Part shown: one piece after another, positions 2,163 to 62,342 of the stretch
Layout: each line of letters opens with the position of its first letter
How positions within the stretch are numbered: the stretch's first letter is position 1
DNA from: Escherichia phage AV111
Length of the DNA: 64,000 nt
Sequence record: OR352941.1
Reading direction: 5' to 3' (one strand)
Made by a program: the position numbers and the translations under genes
Notes under the pieces: model-generated
Seen by the model: the letters and a program-made list of their open reading frames with translations, nothing else
The model's database searches: none
Told to the model about the DNA's origin: nothing

Positions 2163-2191
2163 ATAATATCATGTTTGAAGCACATGTAAAC
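2163..2191 (-). promoter_or_regulatory. early promoter upstream of motA (-35 GTTTAC, 17 nt, TGnTATTAT)
   Basis: plus-strand gtaaac at 2186-2191 and ataata at 2163-2168. Confidence 0.55.
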
Positions 2192-2219
2192 TGTTTTGTG
2201 AGGAAAAAAATGCACAAAA

Positions 2220-2235
2220 GGGAGCCGAAGCTCCC
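2220..2235 (-). terminator. intrinsic terminator-like hairpin GGGAGC-UUCG-GCUCCC followed by a U-rich tract, downstream of gene 52
   Basis: perfect 6-bp stem with UUCG tetraloop on the minus-strand RNA. Confidence 0.6.
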
Positions 2236-2311
2236 TAATCATGCATGTCCAACCAATACAGCCAAATCACTAGTGCAGCTATTGCACCGAGAAATCCTAA
2301 GGCTAGGGCAC

Positions 2312-3641: not shown

Positions 3642-3782
3642 TCACCATATTAATGAACGAATAACCATTATAACATCCGAAATGAAAAGCACTACTTGGA
3701 TTAGTCCAAACATCACACCGTAGTACAGAACCGTAAGCAACAACAAGAGCCCGAAGGCTCCTGCTAAGATTTTCTTAATCAT
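3642..3782 (-). CDS. small hydrophobic protein (46 aa), ac/52.1-like position
   Basis: ATG at 3780-3782, ends 3 nt before gene 52 ATG; below ORF-track length cutoff. Confidence 0.4.
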   Translation of the reverse strand: MIKKILAGAFGLLLLLTVLYYGVMFGLIQVVLFISDVIMVIRSLIW

Positions 3783-4427: not shown

Positions 4428-4471
4428 GCTAATTTCCTCAATTGATTAATGTTTTTGTAATCCATGAGAGC

Positions 4472-4500
4472 ATTATACTCTGCTCTCAAGAGTTTGTACA
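4472..4500 (-). promoter_or_regulatory. early promoter upstream of ndd (-35 TGTACA, 17 nt, -10 TATAAT)
   Basis: hexamers read from sequence. Confidence 0.55.
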
Positions 4501-5218: not shown

Positions 5219-5244
5219 GATGTTATCCTCTTTTAGATAGGACT

Positions 5245-5274
5245 ACTATATCATAGTCCTACTTAGTTGTAAAC
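5245..5274 (-). promoter_or_regulatory. early promoter (-35 GTTTAC, 18 nt, -10 TATAGT) with AGGACTA/TAGTCCT repeat around the -10
   Basis: read from sequence. Confidence 0.5.
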
Positions 5275-5286
5275 ACTTTTATGAAA

Positions 5287-5844
5287 TTAAAGATGAAGAT
5301 ACCACCCGTTGTAGTTGCTCTTGCGGACGATTTTCTTTAGGTCTTCATGGTCTCCCACGAACTTTATAGAATAGGAGAAGACGTCAGGTGAGGTTTCTTT
5401 GACATCTAATATAATAATGCAATCTGCGACTCGATGGTTCAAGAAGGGCCCTATATTGATTCCATTACCACCAGGATAATCACCACTGTATCCTGTGGTA
5501 ACCGAAATCCATTTAGAATCTATCTGGTGCGTCTTGACTTCGACACGCAACCCGCAATATTTAGGATGAGCTAACACGTCCCATGCATACGTGTACGGGT
5601 CTTCTACGTCTTCAATACCTTTATTAACATATCCATCTAGCCAATTTGCTACTACATACTCTGCAAAGACCGCAACCTTACAACGTCGAACAACGTCTTC
5701 TTTTATTTGACCTGGATCTTGTTTCAACGAGTACCGAGCAGTATCAGCGATCTTAACCTTCATTTCGCTAGTCAAAAACTCATTCGACAGGATAAATGTC
5801 GGAAGACTCTTCAGCCTCAACAGCCCCAAGTTCGTCTTTACCAT
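5287..5844 (-). CDS. denB: endonuclease IV DenB-like
   Basis: track ORF is 206 aa; internal ATG at 5844 with AGAGG RBS gives 185 aa, the T4 DenB length; synteny between ndd and rIIB. Confidence 0.7.
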   Translation of the reverse strand: MVKTNLGLLRLKSLPTFILSNEFLTSEMKVKIADTARYSLKQDPGQIKEDVVRRCKVAVFAEYVVANWLDGYVNKGIEDVEDPYTYAWDVLAHPKYCGLRVEVKTHQIDSKWISVTTGYSGDYPGGNGINIGPFLNHRVADCIIILDVKETSPDVFSYSIKFVGDHEDLKKIVRKSNYNGWYLHL

Positions 5845-6087: not shown

Positions 6088-6103
6088 GGGGACCGAAGTC
6101 CCC
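6088..6103 (-). terminator. intrinsic terminator GGGGAC-UUCG-GUCCCC plus U6 tract, downstream of rIIB
   Basis: perfect 6-bp stem, UUCG loop, UUUUUUCUUU tail on minus RNA. Confidence 0.65.
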
Positions 6104-10699: not shown

Positions 10700-10717
10700 A
10701 AGCTCCCGAAGGAGCTT
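10700..10717 (-). terminator. terminator-like hairpin AAGCUCC-UUCG-GGAGCUU overlapping the HNH gene stop
   Basis: 7-bp stem, UUCG loop, U-rich tail. Confidence 0.55.
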
Positions 10718-11513
10718 AGGACATCCAACACATTTTATAACCTTTGCAGGTTCTGTTAGGATTATTTAATGCTTTCAATATATTAGAAGACCCTATATCT
10801 AAATACTCTCTTAATTCATAAAGATAGTTAAAATCAATAGTTTCACCTGTTTTTACACTTGTGATTCTTATAGGCCTTCTTTCATATTTAGATTTATACA
10901 ACTCTCTAGTCTTAGCTTTAGTTTCTTCTGACCTAGGAGTGTATGGTTTAAATCCTTTTGTTTTAAATGTTTCCATTCTTGATTTAGTTATTTTATCCCG
11001 GTGTTCTTTTGTTTTTACAGGTGCTTTTCGCCCATTCTCCCGAGATAACTTGTTGGCCTGTATTATTTTATCTATTGCTTCTTGCGTATGAGTTTTACCA
11101 TAAAATGGATTTAATTCGCCTATACGTTGTGAAGCAATATGTGACATTAATTCTCTTGTTGCTTTAGTATGTTTTTTACCTTTAAATGGGTTGCCATTTT
11201 TAGCAATCCATTCTTTCATAAATCTAGAGTGCTCTTTAGAGAATTCTTGTTTAAGCCAATCATAATCTCTAGAATTTCTAGCTCCCATGTAAAAAGCTCT
11301 AATAGCCATAAGCATAGAACGGTTCTTATGAATTTTATAAAGCAATAAATGGGCGATAAAATGCTCTCTAGGGGTCATTTTAACTAGATTTGATTTAGCA
11401 TTACTCCCGCCCATAGATTTAGGCAAAATATGGTGAGTTTCAGTATAATTAGGAATAGTGCTGCGGTTTTTAGCCGCAGCGATAAGTTTATCATAAATTT
11501 TACGATAATTCAT
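10716..11513 (-). CDS. HNH homing endonuclease (Mob-like, NUMOD repeats)
   Basis: HHILPKS...NLV..T..EH HNH motif; ATG at 11513 overlaps gene 39 stop (TAATG); track ORF start is an upstream alternative codon. Confidence 0.8.
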   Translation of the reverse strand: MNYRKIYDKLIAAAKNRSTIPNYTETHHILPKSMGGSNAKSNLVKMTPREHFIAHLLLYKIHKNRSMLMAIRAFYMGARNSRDYDWLKQEFSKEHSRFMKEWIAKNGNPFKGKKHTKATRELMSHIASQRIGELNPFYGKTHTQEAIDKIIQANKLSRENGRKAPVKTKEHRDKITKSRMETFKTKGFKPYTPRSEETKAKTRELYKSKYERRPIRITSVKTGETIDFNYLYELREYLDIGSSNILKALNNPNRTCKGYKMCWMS

Positions 11514-13333
11514 TATCCTAGCATCCAATCTTTACGGAGTTCAGGGTCGTTACCCATGAGCATTTCAAATAGTTCTTTCCAATTTTCAGGAAGTTTAACT
11601 ACGTCGTACACAGGGTTTTGAATCATTTCTTTATATTCATCTCGCTGAAGTGAGCCCAATCCCTTGATGTATCGAATACTATGCTTAGGCAGTGTATCTT
11701 TAACTTCTTCATACTCAGCTACAGTATAAAACCATTTTTGAGTTTTGCCAATTTGTGCAATAATTACAGGCGTTTTAACAAAGCGAATACGTCCTTGTTC
11801 AAACAATTCAGGCCAATTACTAAAGAAAGCAAGCAAAGCCGGATAAATGCTTCCAAGACCGTCATGATCGGCATCGGTCATAATTGCAATATTACGATAG
11901 TTCGTATTCTCTGCCTTTTCACCAAGAATAAGACCTGTGATAGCACAGATATCAAAGAGCTCTTTGTTCTTCATCATATCAGCATATGACATACCCCAGC
12001 TATTCATCACCTTACCACGTAATGGGAATCCGCCGTGTAGTTCACGGTCACGAACATCAATGAGATAACCAATTGCCGAATCACCTTCTGTTAAGAACAA
12101 TGTTGTATCTGCATCTTTACCACATTGGTTAGCTTTAATATGCTTATGAACCTTAGCTTTAGTTGCCTTTTTAGCTGCTTTAGTTTCTGCAGCCTTTTCT
12201 GCTGCCAATTTACGAGCTAATGCTGCTTCAACAATAGGCATAATCAAGGCTTCGTTTTTAAGAAGTGCCTGAGCAATTTTCTTAGCATCTAATTGGATAT
12301 GATTACGAATATCACCATACGTTGACGTTAAACGTTCTTTAGTCTGAGAATCAAAACGCATGTTGCTCATGTCTCTAATAAACATCAACATTGTGAGACA
12401 TTCTTTAACACGAGCTTTAGTGACTTCAATACCCTTATATTTCTTTTTAATACCTGGCAAAAGATGTTCGCAGATATCATCCATTACGCATTCAACATGA
12501 TGACCGCCGTTTTTAGTATGGATGTTATTCACATAAGTTAAATGACGGAAGCCATCTGGTGATGTTGTGAATGCTATAGAGACTTTATCATTTTCTTGAA
12601 TGATGTTATCTTCACCAAATTGTTTAGCAAATCGTTTAAAATTACCATCAACCTTTTTACCATTAAATGTGAACTTGATATCAGGATAAACGACTGCCAA
12701 TGTTTGAAGTCGATCTAAAGTAATATCTAAATAAATTTGAGATAAATTATGCTCTTCAAATGAAGAGAAATCAGGAGTGAAGATTACTTTAGTGCCTTTA
12801 CATTTAGATTTCTTAGAAGACCATGATTTGTTTTCCATTCCGTTTGAACAGTTAACAGTGATTTCATTTTCGCCATCTGACGTGATGCCTGTAAACAACG
12901 TAGAGAAGATATTAGTTAAACTACTCCCGACGCCGTTCATACCACCAGTCTTGCGTTCAGAATCATCACCAAAGTTACCACCAGCCTTTGGAATAGTCCA
13001 GGCTGCTACAGGCCCAGGAATTTGTTCACCTGTTTGGTCGGTAACTAAACCTTGAGGAATACCACGTCCGTTATCTTCCACCGAAACTTGATTATTTTTA
13101 ATTTGCACGTCAATTTTATTTGCAAACTTAAATGATGTACGAATAGCTTCATCAACCGAGTTGTCAATAATCTCATCGATTAATTTAACCAGACCAGGAA
13201 CATATTCAACTTGTTGATATTTACCAAACAAAAAACGCTCGTGGGCTTCTTTGGCCGAAGAACCAATATACATGCCACTACGTTTCTTAATATGTTCTAC
13301 ATCTGACAGTACCTTAATTTCATTTTTAATCAT
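11513..13333 (-). CDS. 39: DNA topoisomerase II large subunit gp39 (fused 39+60 ORF)
   Basis: 606 aa GyrB-like; MIKNEIKVLSDVEHIKKRSGMYIGSS matches T4 gp39; single ORF covers the region split into 39 and 60 in T4. Confidence 0.93.
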   Translation of the reverse strand: MIKNEIKVLSDVEHIKKRSGMYIGSSAKEAHERFLFGKYQQVEYVPGLVKLIDEIIDNSVDEAIRTSFKFANKIDVQIKNNQVSVEDNGRGIPQGLVTDQTGEQIPGPVAAWTIPKAGGNFGDDSERKTGGMNGVGSSLTNIFSTLFTGITSDGENEITVNCSNGMENKSWSSKKSKCKGTKVIFTPDFSSFEEHNLSQIYLDITLDRLQTLAVVYPDIKFTFNGKKVDGNFKRFAKQFGEDNIIQENDKVSIAFTTSPDGFRHLTYVNNIHTKNGGHHVECVMDDICEHLLPGIKKKYKGIEVTKARVKECLTMLMFIRDMSNMRFDSQTKERLTSTYGDIRNHIQLDAKKIAQALLKNEALIMPIVEAALARKLAAEKAAETKAAKKATKAKVHKHIKANQCGKDADTTLFLTEGDSAIGYLIDVRDRELHGGFPLRGKVMNSWGMSYADMMKNKELFDICAITGLILGEKAENTNYRNIAIMTDADHDGLGSIYPALLAFFSNWPELFEQGRIRFVKTPVIIAQIGKTQKWFYTVAEYEEVKDTLPKHSIRYIKGLGSLQRDEYKEMIQNPVYDVVKLPENWKELFEMLMGNDPELRKDWMLG

Positions 13334-13355: not shown

Positions 13356-13380
13356 ATTCTATCATCCGAAATCTAAAGCA
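13356..13380 (-). promoter_or_regulatory. MotA-dependent middle promoter for gene 39 (MotA box TGCTTTA, 12 nt, -10 TAGAAT)
   Basis: read from sequence; fits the T4 middle promoter pattern. Confidence 0.55.
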
Positions 13381-13384
13381 AAAA

Positions 13385-13395
13385 GGGCCGAAGCC
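13385..13395 (-). terminator. short GGC-UUCG-GCC hairpin plus U5, downstream of ORF 13397..13822
   Basis: seen in sequence; weak stem. Confidence 0.4.
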
Positions 13396-16242: not shown

Positions 16243-16271
16243 ACTATACTCCATCCATCCTTGGATGTACA
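16243..16271 (-). promoter_or_regulatory. promoter (-35 TGTACA, 17 nt, -10 TATAGT) with spacer palindrome CATCCA-TCCT-TGGATG
   Basis: read from sequence. Confidence 0.5.
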
Positions 16272-22789: not shown

Positions 22790-22819
22790 ATCTTAACACA
22801 GTTTTTAGTGGATGTAAAC
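22790..22819 (-). promoter_or_regulatory. early promoter (-35 GTTTAC, 18 nt, -10 TAAGAT)
   Basis: read from sequence. Confidence 0.45.
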
Positions 22820-22835
22820 TCTAGAAACGAAAAAA

Positions 22836-22853
22836 GGAATCCCGAAGGATTCC
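22836..22853 (-). terminator. intrinsic terminator GGAAUCC-UUCG-GGAUUCC plus U6, downstream of soc
   Basis: perfect 7-bp stem, UUCG loop, U-run. Confidence 0.65.
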
Positions 22854-22862
22854 TTAAATTAT

Positions 22863-27293: not shown

Positions 27294-27322
27294 TTTAACT
27301 CCTTAGTTGATTTGATAGGACT

Positions 27323-27352
27323 ACTATACCATAGTCCATCTATAATGTAAAC
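27323..27352 (-). promoter_or_regulatory. early promoter (-35 GTTTAC, 18 nt, -10 TATAGT) with AGGACTA/TAGTCC repeat
   Basis: read from sequence. Confidence 0.5.
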
Positions 27353-29274: not shown

Positions 29275-29304
29275 ATCATATCATGCCTAGAGGAAGATGT
29301 AAAC
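29275..29304 (-). promoter_or_regulatory. early promoter (-35 GTTTAC, 18 nt, -10 TATGAT) with imperfect spacer/RBS inverted repeat
   Basis: TTCCTCTAGG vs CCAAGAGGAA, 9 of 10 pairs. Confidence 0.5.
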
Positions 29305-29311
29305 CCCGAAA

Positions 29312-29327
29312 GGAGACCGAAGTCTCC
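29312..29327 (-). terminator. hairpin GGAGAC-UUCG-GUCUCC immediately downstream of gene 41
   Basis: perfect 6-bp stem, UUCG loop; short U tail. Confidence 0.5.
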
Positions 29328-29333
29328 TTTTTA

Positions 29334-30776
29334 TTAAAATTTTAACTCATTGGCTAAGCTATCTAGGTCAGCACGTGTTGCTTTGGCTTTACCTACGCGT
29401 TCCGTACGATTCACCTCTGCCTGACGCATCTGAGCACCTGCGTTTTCATTTACTGTGTTAGGTGTGTTCATGCCTTCTTGCTCAATCTCAACCCATTTCT
29501 GATTGCCTTTACGTACACCCATCAGGAATTTATTCCACTTATTCTTATCGCCGTATCGTGATTTGATTTGTTTGATAAGTTGTTGTTCAGCTTGTGCAAG
29601 TTCTTCGGTTTCAATTACAGCCAACATGAAATCTGCCGTTGCTGGTAAACCTGCTGATTCTGCGATATCACTCATGTTCATGTCTGAAGCATCCCATGCT
29701 GCACGTCCTACTTGAGCTGCAGTCCATAGAACTGTTTCAGATTCTACTGCTAATGCACGAAGTTCTTCTGCGATAGCTTTAACTAATGTGTAGCTATTTT
29801 CAGTGTAAACTCTGATACGACAAGACCCACAAATACCTAAGTAATCAACCATGATTACAGACGGCACAAAGTTCTTCTTAAGTTTTAACTCATTAAGCAA
29901 TGCACGAAATGTATTAGCATTAGCTCCACCAGTAGGATACTGTTTAACTACTAAACGTCCTAATGTGGATTTTGAACGCCATTTTTCCATCTTGGCTTTA
30001 TATTCAGCATAAGATACGTTACCATCATCGATATCATCGAGTGATACGTCAAGCATGTTTGCATCTATACGCTTAGCACAAACTTCTTCAGCCATTTCCA
30101 TGGAAATATAAAGAACATTATGACCTGTTTGAAGATAATCTGCAGCAAGTGAACAAAGGCCTAAAGATTTACCGACGTTAACACCAGCCATTAAAACGTT
30201 TAGTGTACCTGTTTCAGCACCACCTTTGGTGATTTTATTCAAAATGTTTAATTTGAACGGGACCTTACGTGCTTTATTTAGATAAGAAAGCCAGCGTGCT
30301 TCGTAGTCTTCCATCCAGTCGTGTCCAACATAACTATCGAACGAAATTGAAAGTGCTTGACGCATAATATCAGGAATAGCTCCTACGTCAGGCATTTTCT
30401 TGTTACGTTGTTCTGGAGGTAGTTCAGCATTAGACTGAATCTCAATGATTTTGGATGTAGCATTATACATCGCTTTTTGCTGGACATATTTCTCAGTTTC
30501 TTTAACCAACCATTCGTGGTCTTCAGGAGTATCAGCCAATTTTTCAATTAGGTCTGAAGTTCCTTTATATTCGGCTTCAGTTAAAGAACTGTTATCTAAA
30601 GCCACCTTTAACGCATTGATAGATGGCATTGCATTATATTCGTTAACGTGGCTCTTTATAATTTTAAAGACATTTTTTGCCGGTCCACGCTCAAAATACT
30701 CAGAATCCATATAAGGCCAGACCTTAGAAAAATAAGCCTGGTCATATACGAGATGAGACAAAATAATTTCTACCAC
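29334..30776 (-). CDS. 41: replicative DNA helicase gp41 (DnaB-like)
   Basis: 480 aa; strong match to T4 gp41 throughout as recalled. Confidence 0.95.
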   Translation of the reverse strand: MVEIILSHLVYDQAYFSKVWPYMDSEYFERGPAKNVFKIIKSHVNEYNAMPSINALKVALDNSSLTEAEYKGTSDLIEKLADTPEDHEWLVKETEKYVQQKAMYNATSKIIEIQSNAELPPEQRNKKMPDVGAIPDIMRQALSISFDSYVGHDWMEDYEARWLSYLNKARKVPFKLNILNKITKGGAETGTLNVLMAGVNVGKSLGLCSLAADYLQTGHNVLYISMEMAEEVCAKRIDANMLDVSLDDIDDGNVSYAEYKAKMEKWRSKSTLGRLVVKQYPTGGANANTFRALLNELKLKKNFVPSVIMVDYLGICGSCRIRVYTENSYTLVKAIAEELRALAVESETVLWTAAQVGRAAWDASDMNMSDIAESAGLPATADFMLAVIETEELAQAEQQLIKQIKSRYGDKNKWNKFLMGVRKGNQKWVEIEQEGMNTPNTVNENAGAQMRQAEVNRTERVGKAKATRADLDSLANELKF

Positions 30777-30785
30777 GATAACTCC

Positions 30786-31127
30786 TTAAAAGAATTTAAA
30801 TTTTTTCTTGGTTCGTTCATTAAAAGCTTGTTGTACTTGCATTGTAACACATTTTTCAACATGTGGTGCAAGTTCTGCTTTTCTGTCCTGGTCAAGAACT
30901 GCAAAGTCCATTACGATTTTACCACCAACCCAGTCTAGTTTTGTAATATAGACTATATGATGGGAACCGTCTTCAAGTGTAATCAGAATCTCTTGAATGA
31001 CATTTTCCATTGCTGAACGGATAATTTTAAGAGATTCATTAAACACTCGTTCTTTGCGAATGTCCTCCCCTTCCGAAGAAGGGGATTCATCAACGATTTC
31101 TAGATTTAAATCATCGAGATTATTCAT
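30786..31127 (-). CDS. 40: gp40-like protein
   Basis: ATG at 31127 overlaps uvsX stop (ATGAATAA); about 113 aa; synteny. Confidence 0.6.
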   Translation of the reverse strand: MNNLDDLNLEIVDESPSSEGEDIRKERVFNESLKIIRSAMENVIQEILITLEDGSHHIVYITKLDWVGGKIVMDFAVLDQDRKAELAPHVEKCVTMQVQQAFNERTKKKFKFF

Positions 31128-32292
31128 CGAAATCTTCCATTTCGTCAAGGTCGTTTTCAATATCTGCTGCAGACGGAGCATCAGAAGTTTTAACCGGAAC
31201 TTTAGTTGTTGCTTTGCAATTAATAAGGTCATTAACAGCGTCATCAACTTCTTTAATAGAAGAGATAGCACCTAGTTTATATTTAGTTTCAATTGCATCT
31301 CGGAAAGGCTTATGTTTAAACAACGGCCCCCAGAATTCTACACAATCAGTAGCTTTAGCACGCCATGATTTCTCTTCACGAATCATTTCGCCTGTTTCTT
31401 CGTCAAGGAATTCGCGAGCATACCAACCGGCTTTAGGCTTAACCACAAAACCGATTTCAGTTGCCATTTCTAGCAAGCCGCTGAATGGGTCGATACCACC
31501 ATCAAAATTAACCGTGATCGGGAAAGTAGATTTCTCTTTAACTGTACGAGATTTTTCTGCTTTCAACGTGAAGTCATAACCGGTCAATTCTGTACCTTCT
31601 TTAACCTGACGTTTAGAGATAAAAAATACCGTGTTGGCAGAATAAAGAATACCTGTACCACCACCCATAATCTCTTTAGGATATAGTCCGCCGATTTCCA
31701 TTGCTGTATGGTTGATTGCAACACATGGAATATCTTTAATAGTCAGATAAGGAGTCACAATGCGGAACAGAGATTTAAGTGCCTTAGCACGAGACATATC
31801 ACCTACAACTTTCTCGTTCAACGCATCTTCGGTTTCTTTCTTAGATGCAGTATTACCGATTGAATCGATAAAGATAATAACTTTATCACCGCGTTCAATC
31901 GCGTCAAGCTGATTAGTCATATCAACTTTAAGTTGTTCGACAGATTGAATCGGAGTATGAACTACACGGTCTAAATCAACACCCATTGAACGAAAATAAG
32001 ATTCTGAAGCACCAAATTCTGAATCATAGAACAAACAAATTGCATCTTTATATTTCTTCATATATGCTGCAACCATGGTCAGTCCAAACAACGTTTTAAA
32101 GTGTTTAGAAGGAGCAGCAAAAATAGTCAAGCCTGATTGCAATCCTGCATTCAGAGCACCACCTAGTGCAATATTCAACATCGGAATACGAGTAGGGACT
32201 TCATCACGATTATTAAACAGCTTAGACTTAGTCAAGTCTGCAGTCATTTTAGAAGTAGAAGCTTTAATCAGACGAGATTTTAAATCAGACAT
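31120..32292 (-). CDS. uvsX: UvsX recombinase (RecA-like)
   Basis: 390 aa; matches T4 UvsX length and N-terminus. Confidence 0.95.
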   Translation of the reverse strand: MSDLKSRLIKASTSKMTADLTKSKLFNNRDEVPTRIPMLNIALGGALNAGLQSGLTIFAAPSKHFKTLFGLTMVAAYMKKYKDAICLFYDSEFGASESYFRSMGVDLDRVVHTPIQSVEQLKVDMTNQLDAIERGDKVIIFIDSIGNTASKKETEDALNEKVVGDMSRAKALKSLFRIVTPYLTIKDIPCVAINHTAMEIGGLYPKEIMGGGTGILYSANTVFFISKRQVKEGTELTGYDFTLKAEKSRTVKEKSTFPITVNFDGGIDPFSGLLEMATEIGFVVKPKAGWYAREFLDEETGEMIREEKSWRAKATDCVEFWGPLFKHKPFRDAIETKYKLGAISSIKEVDDAVNDLINCKATTKVPVKTSDAPSAADIENDLDEMEDFDE

Positions 32293-36458: not shown

Positions 36459-38128
36459 TGATGAGTGATATCGCCACCGATTGGACGATAAGAAACACCA
36501 GTTTCTTTATCAGTTAGTACCCATTTACCAGGATTTTTTGTAATCAGAGTAGCCGTTACAGGTTCTGCTACGTCATAACTAATAGAGCCGTCTTGAAGTA
36601 CACGGCCCATGTTACGTAATTGCTTAGTCAGAAGTTCCATACCTTTATAATATGCTGCTACCGCTTTAAGTGGATTATTCTTGAAATAACCACCTAATGC
36701 AATCCAGATAATTGCTACAGCCAAATGATGATACTCGTTAAACGAACTCATCTTTCCATATTTGTAAACTAATGGATTGATGTTAATAGTCACATTACAA
36801 GTTGTTTCATCAATAGTAAACTGTCCCCAGGCCGGATTAGCATTGAATTCATCATAACCTGAAACAGCATAAAGCACTTTAGCTTCATCATACAATTTTG
36901 GCCCGTAAATCTTGGTTTCGCCAAAATATCCACGAGGGTCGATAAACTTGACTTCGCCGTTATCAGTAATCATAGTATTACTGAAGTTCGGGTCACCATG
37001 AATAACAGAGTACTGTCCCTGAGAACGGTTATGATAACGAATAAGGTGTTCTAAAGCTTGTTTCAGCATTGGCTTCAGACGTCCAATCTTAGTGTAGTTC
37101 ACATGTGTGATTTTACCAAATGAATCAATCAATGGTTGAATACTTTCACAACGATCAATAACTTTCGTATAGAATTCTTTAGTGAAATCACGACGAACAG
37201 TTTCAGGACTTACAAAATAAGTGTCTGTGCTGAATTTCAGTGCATCTAAAATTGCATCAACAATTTGTGGACGAGCAAGACTTGATTTGGATTTAATATA
37301 TTCAAATGCCGGCTTACCTTTAATGCGTTCCATTTCAAAGTTATTTTCATTAACAGAAACTAACTGAGGAACTGAATCTGATTTCACTTTAAGATACCAC
37401 GAAATCTCATCTTTCTGAAGAGCTCGACCCTGTTCGGTTAATGCGAATTTAGTTACAGTTTCTTCACCAATTTCAACTGCATTAAAACTACGATTAAGTT
37501 CACGAACTTCATGAGCTTTTTCAAGTTTAGGCATATCACCTAAATCAATTAGATTCATAAGCTCTGATTTATTGAATGCGCTGCCGTAAAGGAATTCTAC
37601 GAAATCACGTCCTTTGCAGTATTCATGAATTTCCTCATCGGTAGAACCCATATAGAATTCCCAGTCTTTGAACTGATAAATTCCTACAACATTACCACCT
37701 GTTGAACCTACGTTAGTGATATTTTCACCGTCGAAATTATATCGACATTCATCACCCTTAACATAGATTGCGTTAACATTCCAAGACCATGAACCAAAAT
37801 CAGGAATAATATCACACCAGTTAACAATTACGTTATGGCCGTCTAAATCTTTGTGTAATTTAGCAAGAGCATAAGCAGAACCATACGCTTCATCAACTGT
37901 ACGAATAGTCACATTGAACCCTTCTTGCTCACAATAAGCTCGAACAGTTTCAGCAAATTTTGAATGAACTACTACAATAATTTCATCTGCGCCAAGGTCA
38001 GAATAAATTGTATACAAATTGCTCAGAATAGTGTCTTGTTTATAGTTAACAAGCACCTTAGGAATATGATGCGTTATTGGATACAAACGAGTTGCCAGTC
38101 CAGCACCAAGAATAACAGCTTTTTTCAT
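36443..38128 (-). CDS. bifunctional sugar-1-phosphate nucleotidyltransferase / kinase (561 aa)
   Basis: N-terminus MKKAVILGAGLATRLYPIT (GxGTRLxPxT); C-terminal HGDPNFSN (HxDxxxxN) kinase motif. Confidence 0.7.
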   Translation of the reverse strand: MKKAVILGAGLATRLYPITHHIPKVLVNYKQDTILSNLYTIYSDLGADEIIVVVHSKFAETVRAYCEQEGFNVTIRTVDEAYGSAYALAKLHKDLDGHNVIVNWCDIIPDFGSWSWNVNAIYVKGDECRYNFDGENITNVGSTGGNVVGIYQFKDWEFYMGSTDEEIHEYCKGRDFVEFLYGSAFNKSELMNLIDLGDMPKLEKAHEVRELNRSFNAVEIGEETVTKFALTEQGRALQKDEISWYLKVKSDSVPQLVSVNENNFEMERIKGKPAFEYIKSKSSLARPQIVDAILDALKFSTDTYFVSPETVRRDFTKEFYTKVIDRCESIQPLIDSFGKITHVNYTKIGRLKPMLKQALEHLIRYHNRSQGQYSVIHGDPNFSNTMITDNGEVKFIDPRGYFGETKIYGPKLYDEAKVLYAVSGYDEFNANPAWGQFTIDETTCNVTININPLVYKYGKMSSFNEYHHLAVAIIWIALGGYFKNNPLKAVAAYYKGMELLTKQLRNMGRVLQDGSISYDVAEPVTATLITKNPGKWVLTDKETGVSYRPIGGDITHQWERI

Positions 38129-38313: not shown

Positions 38314-38945
38314 TGTTCGCCTCGTAACATGGCACCTAGTGCACCGCCTGGATGGAACTTAAGGAAATCATTAGAGGTAAATCCACGTTCAGACGAAAGG
38401 TTGATAGCAAACGTATCGATAAGCGCTAACAACAATGTAGTGGACATTGTCGGAGCTAAAGAGTTCTCGTCAACTTCTACCGCGATACCGGTACAGAACG
38501 TATAATCAAAAAGAGCTTCGTATTCTTGTGGAATGTCAGGGTTACAATGTAACAGAATCTGTTTAACCTGAGGACGAATCATACGAAGATGTTTAGCAAC
38601 ACCTATCATTTCTTCAGTCTTACCAGAACGACTGATGTGAACTAATACATCATTAGGTGCAATAAATCCTGCGTCACCATGAGAATAATGCCCAGTGTTC
38701 AAGTACATACTCGGGATACCGAGTGAAGCAAATGTCTCAGAAGCTTTAGTTGCGATATTAGCATTCTTACCAACACCTGTAATAATTACCCGGCTTTCAT
38801 AATTGCTAAGTCCGGGGCGTCGAAGAGTTTCTAGAATAGCATTATAACGAGCAGGGTTTTGACTAATTACTTTGGCCATAGCGGCCAAAGAAGAAGCTTG
38901 TTTTATGATTGCGTCAATAGCGATAGTAATAGGAGTAGTTTTCAT
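38310..38945 (-). CDS. SIS-domain sugar-phosphate isomerase, KdsD/GutQ-like (arabinose-5-phosphate isomerase-like)
   Basis: ITGVGKN, HISRSGKTEE, APTMSTT, HPGGALG motifs align with the KdsD SIS domain as recalled. Confidence 0.75.
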   Translation of the reverse strand: MKTTPITIAIDAIIKQASSLAAMAKVISQNPARYNAILETLRRPGLSNYESRVIITGVGKNANIATKASETFASLGIPSMYLNTGHYSHGDAGFIAPNDVLVHISRSGKTEEMIGVAKHLRMIRPQVKQILLHCNPDIPQEYEALFDYTFCTGIAVEVDENSLAPTMSTTLLLALIDTFAINLSSERGFTSNDFLKFHPGGALGAMLRGEQ

Positions 38946-41701: not shown

Positions 41702-41725
41702 TTTCCTTTAGACGAGTTATTGTCT
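41702..41725 (-). promoter_or_regulatory. gene 43 translational operator candidate: hairpin AGAC-AAUAACUC-GUCU next to the AGGAAA RBS
   Basis: 4-bp stem with 8-nt loop directly upstream of the RBS, as described for T4 gp43 autoregulation. Confidence 0.5.
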
Positions 41726-41755
41726 TTTGTTTGTTGATGAACTTATTATACTCCA

Positions 41756-41775
41756 AATGGGACCGAAGTCCCATT
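41756..41775 (-). terminator. hairpin AAUGGGAC-UUCG-GUCCCAUU between regA and gene 43
   Basis: perfect 8-bp stem, UUCG loop; no strong U-run. Confidence 0.5.
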
Positions 41776-41778
41776 GCT

Positions 41779-42156
41779 TTAATTACCAATTGTATATTTT
41801 GCTTTCAAAGTCCAGTCATCTTTCTGTTTAAAAGAGATAACACGGAAGTTATTAGTCAGGCCAAACAGATCTTCACGAGCAGAGTCTTCAATAACAATCA
41901 ATCCCCAGTCTTCAAGCAACTGGGCAATCGAATCACGTCGCTGATAGTCTTCACCGTCAATATCAACCTGACGTCCATCCATACGCAACATTTCTTTAAA
42001 GTGGACGATGTAGTATTTACCTTGCTTTTGGAGGATATGACAGGACTGATAAAGAACTTTATCCTTGTTATTAGCGATGCCCATACGGGTCAAAGTCTCT
42101 TTGACTTTCAGAAAATCTTCGGGGTTCTTCAATTTAATTTCAATCATTTTTACCAT
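41779..42156 (-). CDS. regA: translational repressor RegA
   Basis: [25 protein letters not shown]...[11 protein letters not shown] matches T4 RegA as recalled; true start may be the ATG at 42147. Confidence 0.88.
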
Positions 42157-43702: not shown

Positions 43703-43720
43703 TGGAGGATTTCTCCTCCA
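43703..43720 (-). promoter_or_regulatory. gene 44 leader hairpin GGAGGA-GAAA-UCCUCC (GNRA loop) upstream of the AAUGAGGAAA RBS region
   Basis: 6-7 bp perfect stem seen in sequence. Confidence 0.4.
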
Positions 43721-45960: not shown

Positions 45961-46002
45961 TTAATTTGATGTGGTCATTATAACCACATCGTGTTAAAGC
46001 GT

Positions 46003-49210: not shown

Positions 49211-49234
49211 ATTCTATCATCCGTTTATAAAGCA
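49211..49234 (-). promoter_or_regulatory. MotA-dependent middle promoter for gene 47 (TGCTTTA, 11 nt, -10 TAGAAT)
   Basis: read from sequence. Confidence 0.55.
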
Positions 49235-49239
49235 AAAAA

Positions 49240-49257
49240 GGAACTCCGAAGAGTTCC
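49240..49257 (-). terminator. intrinsic terminator GGAACUC-UUCG-GAGUUCC plus U6
   Basis: perfect 7-bp stem, UUCG loop, U-run; abuts the stop of the small ORF upstream. Confidence 0.65.
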
Positions 49258-49430
49258 TATCCACATAGTACACCGTACAGAGGCTCATTTGAACTTTTAA
49301 ATCGAATGGGCTTGTACGTAATAGTTCCTTCGGCTTTAGCTTTATCATAAGACTCTTTAAAACGTCTCATTCTTTCTGCTTTGCCTTTACGGATTTTATC
49401 GAAATTTTCAGAAGTCGGGATGTTCGTCAT
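49257..49430 (-). CDS. small protein (57 aa)
   Basis: ATG with GAGAGG RBS; below ORF-track cutoff. Confidence 0.35.
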   Translation of the reverse strand: MTNIPTSENFDKIRKGKAERMRRFKESYDKAKAEGTITYKPIRFKSSNEPLYGVLCG

Positions 49431-61296: not shown

Positions 61297-61326
61297 ATTA
61301 TACTCCAACCATCCTTGGTTGTAAAC
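61297..61326 (-). promoter_or_regulatory. promoter (-35 GTTTAC, 18 nt, -10 TATAAT) with spacer palindrome CAACCA-TCCT-TGGTTG
   Basis: read from sequence. Confidence 0.55.
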
Positions 61327-62313: not shown

Positions 62314-62342
62314 ATTATACTCCAACCATCCTTGGTTGTACA
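62314..62342 (-). promoter_or_regulatory. promoter (-35 TGTACA, 17 nt, -10 TATAAT) with the same spacer palindrome CAACCATCCTTGGTTG
   Basis: read from sequence. Confidence 0.55.

Follow-up and report, generated by a model that had tools for sequence, protein, structure and literature searches.

C(UUCG)G hairpins of the T4 class at or just past cistron ends in the early/middle gene region of a T4-like phage

The window analyzed here, a stretch of 64,000 nucleotides, covers the early/middle gene region of a T4-like phage and keeps the gene order of T4: motA, 52, ndd, denB, rIIB, rIIA, 39, a goF-like gene, motB, dexA, dda, and onward. PHROG searches identified soc, the helicase gp41, UvsX, gp40, RegA, the DNA polymerase gp43, and gp47, and genes 39 and 60 are fused. 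The first 20 kb is 95 to 96% identical to Escherichia phages a20, p000v, and phiC120, and the annotated relative p000v is assigned to Straboviridae, Tevenvirinae, genus Mosigvirus. The minus strand bears all real genes, with the motA homologue, for example, at 1491-2123, so that minus-strand RNA is the message. A crude gene model assigns 91.7% of the window to coding sequence and leaves 8.3% noncoding.

A first-pass annotation of this DNA had listed eight minus-strand stems closed by a UUCG loop. To count such elements we preferred our own hairpin census to a built-in terminator scan, because the scan was too permissive (20 hits against 12.4 expected). The census took each TTCG with complementary flanking bases on both strands and kept stems of at least 3 bp. 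Twelve such hairpins lie on the minus strand, 10 of them with a C-G closing pair. All eight stems listed earlier are perfect and C(UUCG)G closed; the total, however, is ten, the additional sites being 3747-3760 and 31066-31085. A UUCG loop, C-G closure, and a Watson-Crick stem were found at 10 of 10 sites. Stems measure 5 to 9 bp, with the exception of 13385 (3 bp), and at 2219-2236, 22834-22855, 29309-29330, and 49239-49258 the perfect stem reaches 1 to 3 bp past the ends given earlier. The ten stems have no sequence in common and are therefore not copies of a repeat. Folding energies, a check proposed in the first-pass annotation, were calculated with nearest-neighbor parameters that have a UUCG tetraloop bonus built in; nine bare hairpins fall between -7.5 and -13.5 kcal/mol, and 13385-13395 is at -3.8 kcal/mol. 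The CUUCGG hairpins at T4 gene ends, a textbook case, are those in which the stability of the UUCG tetraloop first came to attention.

The hairpins are far more numerous than the base composition predicts. In 300 dinucleotide-preserving shuffles of the window, the control suggested with the original listing, stems of at least 5 bp appear at a mean of 0.28 and a maximum of 3, against 9 observed; for stems of at least 6 bp, 8 are observed against 0.05 expected, so that UUCG hairpins are enriched about 30-fold or more. That the set consists of chance inverted repeats is scarcely credible. Shuffled sequence does contain a mean of 4.4 hairpins with 3-bp stems, and 3747 (5 bp) and 13385 (3 bp), each taken alone, are within chance reach, but the excess at 5 bp and above excludes chance for the set as a whole, and these two weak sites are both kept as hairpins in relatives. 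The hairpins also have a strand. The 9 stems that reach 5 bp all belong to the minus strand and none to the plus strand, where stems never exceed 4 bp in the window. The bare hexamer CTTCGG has no such bias (12 minus, 14 plus), and yet 10 of the 12 minus-strand copies lie within hairpins compared with 1 of the 14 plus-strand copies. Further, UUCG is the most frequent loop among perfect tetraloop hairpins of the window, accounting for 8 of 33 at stems of at least 6 bp.

Eight of the ten hairpins are noncoding, though only 8.3% of the window is (binomial P of ~9e-8), and these eight begin -2 to +7 nt from a stop codon, in agreement with the earlier description of the hairpins as sitting just after stops. 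Several also lie 20 to 60 nt upstream of the next start codon. T4 does use hairpins that sequester ribosome-binding sites (PMC2988022), and the present hairpins could be imagined to regulate translation by hiding the downstream site, as in T4 soc, e, 49, and I-TevI. We consider this very unlikely, since a downstream Shine-Dalgarno sequence or start codon lies in the stem of 0 of the 10 hairpins, and position follows the upstream stop rather than the downstream start.

We scored as terminator-like a GC-rich stem-loop followed by at least 5 U in 8 nt. The hairpin at 6088..6103 (minus strand, as are all of those below; 6 bp) lies 5 nt past the rIIB stop and is followed by UUUUUUCUUU, with 7 of 8 U, and would be a canonical intrinsic terminator by sequence. 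The same can be said of the 9-bp hairpin at 22834..22855, located 7 nt past the soc stop and followed by UUUUCGUUU, and of the 8-bp hairpin at 49239..49258, which overlaps the stop of a 57-aa open reading frame (ORF) upstream of gene 47 and is followed by UUUUU; both have 6 of 8 U. Also at 6 of 8 are 3747..3760 and the weakened hairpin at 13385..13395, which lies 1 nt past the stop of the goF-like ORF and leads into UUUUU. Two sites are borderline at 4 of 8: 2219..2236 (7 bp, -12.4 kcal/mol), where the U-run is broken up (UUUGUGCAUUUUUUU), and 10700..10717 (7 bp), which has a weak U-tract (CAUUUUAAUUUU). Below the threshold are 29309..29330 (9 bp; 3 nt past the gene 41 stop; a poor U-tract, CGGGGUUU) and 41756..41775 (8 bp; 3 nt past the regA stop; no U-tract), both at 3 of 8, and 31066..31085 at 2 of 8. 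The earlier statement that most of the listed stems lead into a U-run thus applies to 6088, 13385, 22834, and 49239, and loosely to the interrupted run at 2219; it does not apply to 10700, where the run is weak, or to 29309 and 41756.

For some sites, the neighboring gene is not the one first assigned. The hairpin at 2219 had been placed after gene 52; a membrane ORF of 26 codons, however, overlaps the stop of gene 52, and it is the stop of this ORF that the hairpin directly follows. In relatives L135-139 the site is occupied by GGAACC.UUCG.GGUUCC plus a U-run. A longer outer helix around hairpin 2219 was also considered and set aside as incidental, as it is lost in the 99%-similar relative L132. 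The hairpin at 10700, described earlier as following an HNH gene, does overlap the stop of that gene. However, in the region 10700-11528 the HNH homing-endonuclease gene sits exactly between the gene 39 stop (a TAATG overlap) and the UUCG hairpin, and in L133, a 98%-similar relative that does not carry the HNH gene, the hairpin lies directly 3' of the gene 39 stop. From this comparison, hairpin 10700 is the native 3' hairpin of gene 39, with the HNH gene inserted upstream of it. Relatives similarly account for the short stem at 13385. L132 and L133 have a 6-bp stem (AAGGGC/GCCCTT) where the window has AATGGC, with one mismatching base, and the stem at the equivalent T4 site is 7 bp. By alignment, the present phage appears to carry a weakened allele, one base change cutting 6 bp to 3, and at -3.8 kcal/mol it may be too weak for confidence in continued function.

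Six of the ten hairpins abut a promoter motif. We searched for MotA-type middle promoters with a box of (a/t)(a/t)TGCTT(t/c)A 11 to 13 bp upstream of a TAnnnT -10 element, a stringent pattern with 7 coding-strand matches in the window and 2 on the opposite strand, and for early promoters with TTTACA, 16 to 17 nt, and TAnnAT, for which there are 26 coding-strand matches and 3 on the opposite strand. The MotA pattern was found after 13385 and 49239. The predicted middle promoter of gene 39 (TTTGCTTTA, 12 nt, TAGAAT) is at 13356..13382, minus strand, and that of gene 47 (TTTGCTTTA, 11 nt, TAGAAT) is at 49211..49236, minus strand; each begins 2 nt past its hairpin, and at both sites the T-run ahead of the MotA box is the terminator U-tract. 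Early-type promoters, all on the minus strand, are predicted at 2163..2190 (TTTACA, 16 nt, TG-TATTAT), 28 nt past hairpin 2219 and upstream of motA; at 22790..22818 (TTTACA, 17 nt, TAAGAT), 15 nt past the soc hairpin; and at 29275..29303 (TTTACA, 17 nt, TATGAT), 5 nt past the gene 41 hairpin. The two terminator-promoter units proposed at first pass, with MotA boxes directly past the hairpins before genes 39 and 47, are therefore upheld, and four further junctions join them, the three early-type ones and a P43-like one past regA.

The T4 map has the same arrangement. The mapped T4 middle promoter starts P39 (5349), P43 (29933), P47 (36576), and PmobB (38682), taken from Hinton's table, lie 32, 19, 31, and 33 nt, respectively, downstream of C(UUCG)G hairpins at 5381-5398, 29952-29969, 36607-36626, and 38715-38734. 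In the window, the sequence past the regA hairpin is GGAGTATAAT, and the TATAAT at 41745..41750 (minus strand) probably represents the -10 element of a middle promoter for gene 43, the equivalent of P43. Relatives keep TATAAT 5 to 9 nt past the regA hairpin. A RegB site at this position (GGAGUAUAAUA against the consensus GGAGAAUAAAA) was considered as the conserved feature and rejected: relatives vary the GGAG (GGGG, GUAG, CUGGG) and keep GTATAAT, which fits a P43 -10 element rather than a RegB site. A separate element farther downstream is the gp43 translational operator hairpin, AGACAAUAACUCGUCU at 41710-41725. It lies some 14 nt ahead of where gene 43 starts and agrees with the 16-base gp43 operator of the RB69 type, including the UAAC loop motif (PMC3014915).

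Some further matches around these promoters were noted. The loop DNA of the T4 hairpin at 29952-29969, GCTTCG, falls at about -30 of the P43 start at 29933, which is the position of a MotA box, and the loop DNA of 41756-41775 in the window, ACTTCG, resembles the unusual ACTT box of P46. As a general rule, a UUCG loop whose DNA doubles as the P43 MotA box was rejected, because relatives place TATAAT anywhere from 13 to 17 nt away from the loop, and CTT is missing from some loops; the placement may be a coincidence. On the plus strand, 41773-41800 carries ATTGCTTTA, 12 nt, and TATATT, a MotA-promoter-like match that is antisense to regA and abuts the regA hairpin and is probably due to chance. 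Seven other perfect intergenic hairpins on the coding strand (4465-4488, 5238-5261, 27318-27337, and 45968-45990; also 16252-16267, 61306-61321, and 62323-62338) either enclose a TATAAT-like -10 element in a loop of 8 bases or have AGGA as the loop, with GAGTATAAT after it. These look like promoters embedded in palindromes, in which read-through RNA would fold and promoter-proximal RNA would not.

The first-pass annotation had likened the hairpins to those first described in T4 intercistronic regions, and the comparison is apt. T4 intergenic regions are rich in CUUCGG hairpins at which reverse transcriptase stops (Tuerk et al. 1988, PNAS 85:1364, as cited in PMC8948821), and later summaries of that work (PMC8948821; bioRxiv 10.1101/2022.08.31.505936; PMC1702504) treat these hairpins as a class that, in the words of one, "act as a transcriptional terminator or stabilize RNA" (bioRxiv 10.1101/2022.08.31.505936). 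We found at least 15 C(UUCG)G hairpins in the 74 kb of T4 examined, and they occupy orthologous junctions: after soc, regA, and rIIB, inside gene 40, and before genes 39 and 47. In the T4 tail-fiber region, the sole plus-strand hairpin with a stem of at least 4 bp lies between the plus-strand genes 37 and 38. The present hairpins share with those of T4 the loop, the closing C-G pair, the transcribed strand, the intercistronic preference, and the gene junctions, and differ in belonging to another genus (Mosigvirus) and in their stem sequences. Individual sites differ as well. A hairpin follows gene 41 in the present phage and not in T4; the 45/44 junction has a GAAA-loop hairpin in the window (UGGAGGA.GAAA.UCCUCCA, 43703-43720) and a UUCG loop in T4 (31899-31914); and the gene 60 take-off (bypass) hairpin of T4 is absent here because genes 39 and 60 are fused.

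To compare the junctions more widely, we used 46 loci of about 21 kb each around gene 41 from T4-like phages in IMG/VR, 965 kb in all. Of the UUCG hairpins whose stems reach 5 bp or more, the coding strand bears 104 and the opposite strand 5. At the soc junction, the hairpin is kept in 30 distinct orthologous sequences with 96.3% of cells paired; both bases differ at 5 of 9 pairs, and the observed covariation score was reached in 0 of 500 shuffles. The regA junction yielded 12 distinct orthologous hairpins, the rIIB junction five further stems in relatives, and the gene 41 junction 7 different stems in some lineages only. Where such lists were drawn up by a hairpin finder, their lack of unpaired positions is by construction, and only the diversity of stems at a fixed junction is informative. 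T4-type phages lack the hairpin after gene 41, which is therefore dispensable. Loops drift at orthologous sites (UCCG, UUUG, UUAG, UUAC, GAAA). By sequence comparison, then, what persists at a given junction is a capped hairpin of high stability, with pairing kept rather than sequence, and the selected property would be the stable hairpin and not UUCG as such, because orthologous sites sometimes bear GAAA or other loops.

These comparisons also bear on whether the palindromes act in the DNA, be it by binding proteins, forming cruciforms, serving as targets of recombination or homing, or making up a mobile repeat of the REP kind. As DNA, they are inverted repeats without a mismatch, one adjoins a homing-endonuclease insertion, and loop inversions between close relatives point to the palindrome affecting mutation. 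Such a role is nonetheless highly improbable for the set: the asymmetric loop is oriented with transcription (the 104 against 5 above), stems differ from site to site, pairing and not sequence is kept between phages, and there is no match to a repeat family or, in an Rfam 15 scan of the whole window, to any family at the gathering score. The loop inversions themselves were seen at the soc terminator. Between L122 and L092/L117 the loop changes from UUCG to CGAA, and between L101 and L102 from UUCU to AGAA, the stem being unchanged in both cases; exact reverse-complementing of the loop between close relatives suggests inversion by strand switching at the palindrome.

Two of the ten hairpins lie in translated sequence. 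The hairpin at 31066..31085 (8 bp, -13.5 kcal/mol) occupies codons 15 to 21 of gene 40 (SPSSEGE), 34 nt past the uvsX stop, which the gene 40 ATG overlaps, and has no U-tract. That at 3747..3760 has a perfect stem of 5 bp, or 11 bp with its extension, and occupies codons 7 to 12 of the 46-codon membrane ORF 52.1. Both are far more stable than synonymous recodings of the same peptides. In 3,000 trials of synonymous-codon resampling with the phage's own codon usage, the stability of the native gene 40 hairpin was reached by 0.07% of resamples in the window (P = 0.0007) and by 0 of 3,000 in T4, and that of ORF 52.1 by 0 of 3,000 in the window and 0.4% in T4; both hairpins use rare CCC and GGG codons. 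Further, a hairpin is present at the equivalent codons of gene 40 in about 40 of the 46 loci, with energies of -10 to -19 kcal/mol and with 16 distinct stems and 11 loop sequences across relatives (loci L085-L130), and the peptides encoded there differ (ESPSSEGE, TPSQEGE, EEGPSDPR, EESSDEDS, EAPKGAS). Similarly, ORF 52.1 carries a hairpin in relatives (T4 165,2xx; L135-L148) with other stems and other peptides. In L106 and L112, an intergenic spacer follows uvsX, and a canonical UUCG terminator lies right after uvsX instead.

For the gene 40 site, T4 offers a published counterpart. According to Kim et al. (2025, PMC12152347), the 358 nt upstream of gene 41 include "the stem-loop" just past which an in vivo RNA 3' end maps; rho(nusD) hosts have more RNA ending at this point, and the suppressor GoF(D25Y) is reported to act posttranscriptionally. 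In this 358-nt region of T4, the CUUCGG hairpin, at -15.9 kcal/mol, is the only strong one, with nothing else below about -6 kcal/mol; the T4 gene 40 hairpin is thus probably the published stem-loop.

With these sites in hand, we can ask whether all ten hairpins could be simple intrinsic terminators and nothing more. In T4, terminators are described as GC stems with a 4-nt loop, accompanied by poly(U) (PMC2988022); the stems and loops here fit that description, at five sites U makes up 6 or more of the 8 nt past the stem, and T4 terminators with weak poly(U) still stop about 30% of transcripts (PMC2988022). Against this stand the 2 to 3 U at 29309, 31066, and 41756, the rIIB-junction hairpin of several relatives, which abuts the ribosome-binding site for the next gene and has no U-run, and the two hairpins in translated sequence, where ribosomes would melt the stems. 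The effect at the T4 gene 40 site, moreover, is reported by Kim et al. (PMC12152347) as posttranscriptional. A purely terminator set is therefore unlikely. The alternatives named at first pass, terminators or RNA-stabilizing elements, are together well supported by the T4 class and the orthologous junctions, with a terminator-grade U-run at only about half of the sites.

Known systems resemble the hairpins in different respects. Like Rho-independent terminators of E. coli and T4, they have a GC-rich stem and a 4-nt loop, lie past stop codons, and are followed by a U-run at five sites, and several positions are conserved across T4-like genomes, as for RB69 and others (PMC1524935); unlike them, half of the present sites do not have the U-run that defines that class. 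Some T4 terminators lie in the 5' ends of coding sequences, terminate partially, and are followed by middle promoters (PMC2988022). The gene 40 and ORF 52.1 hairpins recall the T4 mobE and segF terminators (Edgell et al. 2010, PMC2988022) in lying within the first 10 to 20 codons of a gene whose start is at or overlaps the previous stop, although mobE has poly(U) and about 30% measured termination and the gene 40 hairpin has no U-run. Bacterial 3' stabilizing hairpins such as REP stem-loops are likewise stable cistron-end stem-loops without a U-run, and the T4 gene 40 site, with its reported 3' end and posttranscriptional effect (PMC12152347), is similar to them; REP elements, however, form a dispersed repeat family, whereas each stem here is unique and much shorter. 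A literature search for Term-seq or 3'-end maps of T4 returned nothing usable.

Taken together, the evidence makes it very probable that the window carries ten T4-class C(UUCG)G hairpins at or just past cistron ends, of which about half are terminators and the rest set or protect 3' ends, with six abutting promoters. In minus-strand transcripts, GC-rich hairpins with a very stable C(UUCG)G cap would form at cistron ends, the cap favoring fast and stable folding of a 6- to 9-bp stem in a genome of 37% G+C. Going by stem and U-run, factor-independent termination is predicted at 6088, 22834, and 49239, in weakened form at 13385, and with an interrupted run at 2219. For the hairpins at 10700, 29309, and 41756 and the intragenic ones at 3747 and 31066, the most likely role is to fix or shield the 3' terminus of the message upstream. 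They would do so either by halting 3'-to-5' exonucleases once the RNA has been cleaved or by acting as sites of pausing or weak termination, two routes that would look alike in sequence. Where hairpin and promoter adjoin (6 of 10 sites), the junction would close one transcription unit and open the next, and U-run sites together with the following promoter may insulate adjoining units. Where start and stop codons overlap, the hairpin may have been pushed into the first codons of the next gene.

A more specific and tentative reading, which we regard as possible but doubtful, is that the hairpins without a U-run, above all those of gene 40 and ORF 52.1, form a distinct class conserved across the T4 subfamily, kept by RNA-level selection against codon preference and determining where the preceding message (uvsX, ac) ends or how long it lasts, in places where start/stop overlap leaves no intergenic room. 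Such a class has so far had no systematic description.

The hairpin class itself, the T4 orthologues, and the adjoining T4 promoters are already published and ordinary for this phage family, and the set carries little weight as a discovery. The present analysis contributes two sites overlooked earlier, four further promoter junctions, an account of where the hairpin at the HNH gene comes from, and comparative evidence on the intragenic hairpins. For annotation, the ten hairpins and six promoters delimit the transcription units of the early region, and the sites form a clean test set for whether a hairpin lacking a U-run ends transcription or impedes decay of the RNA.
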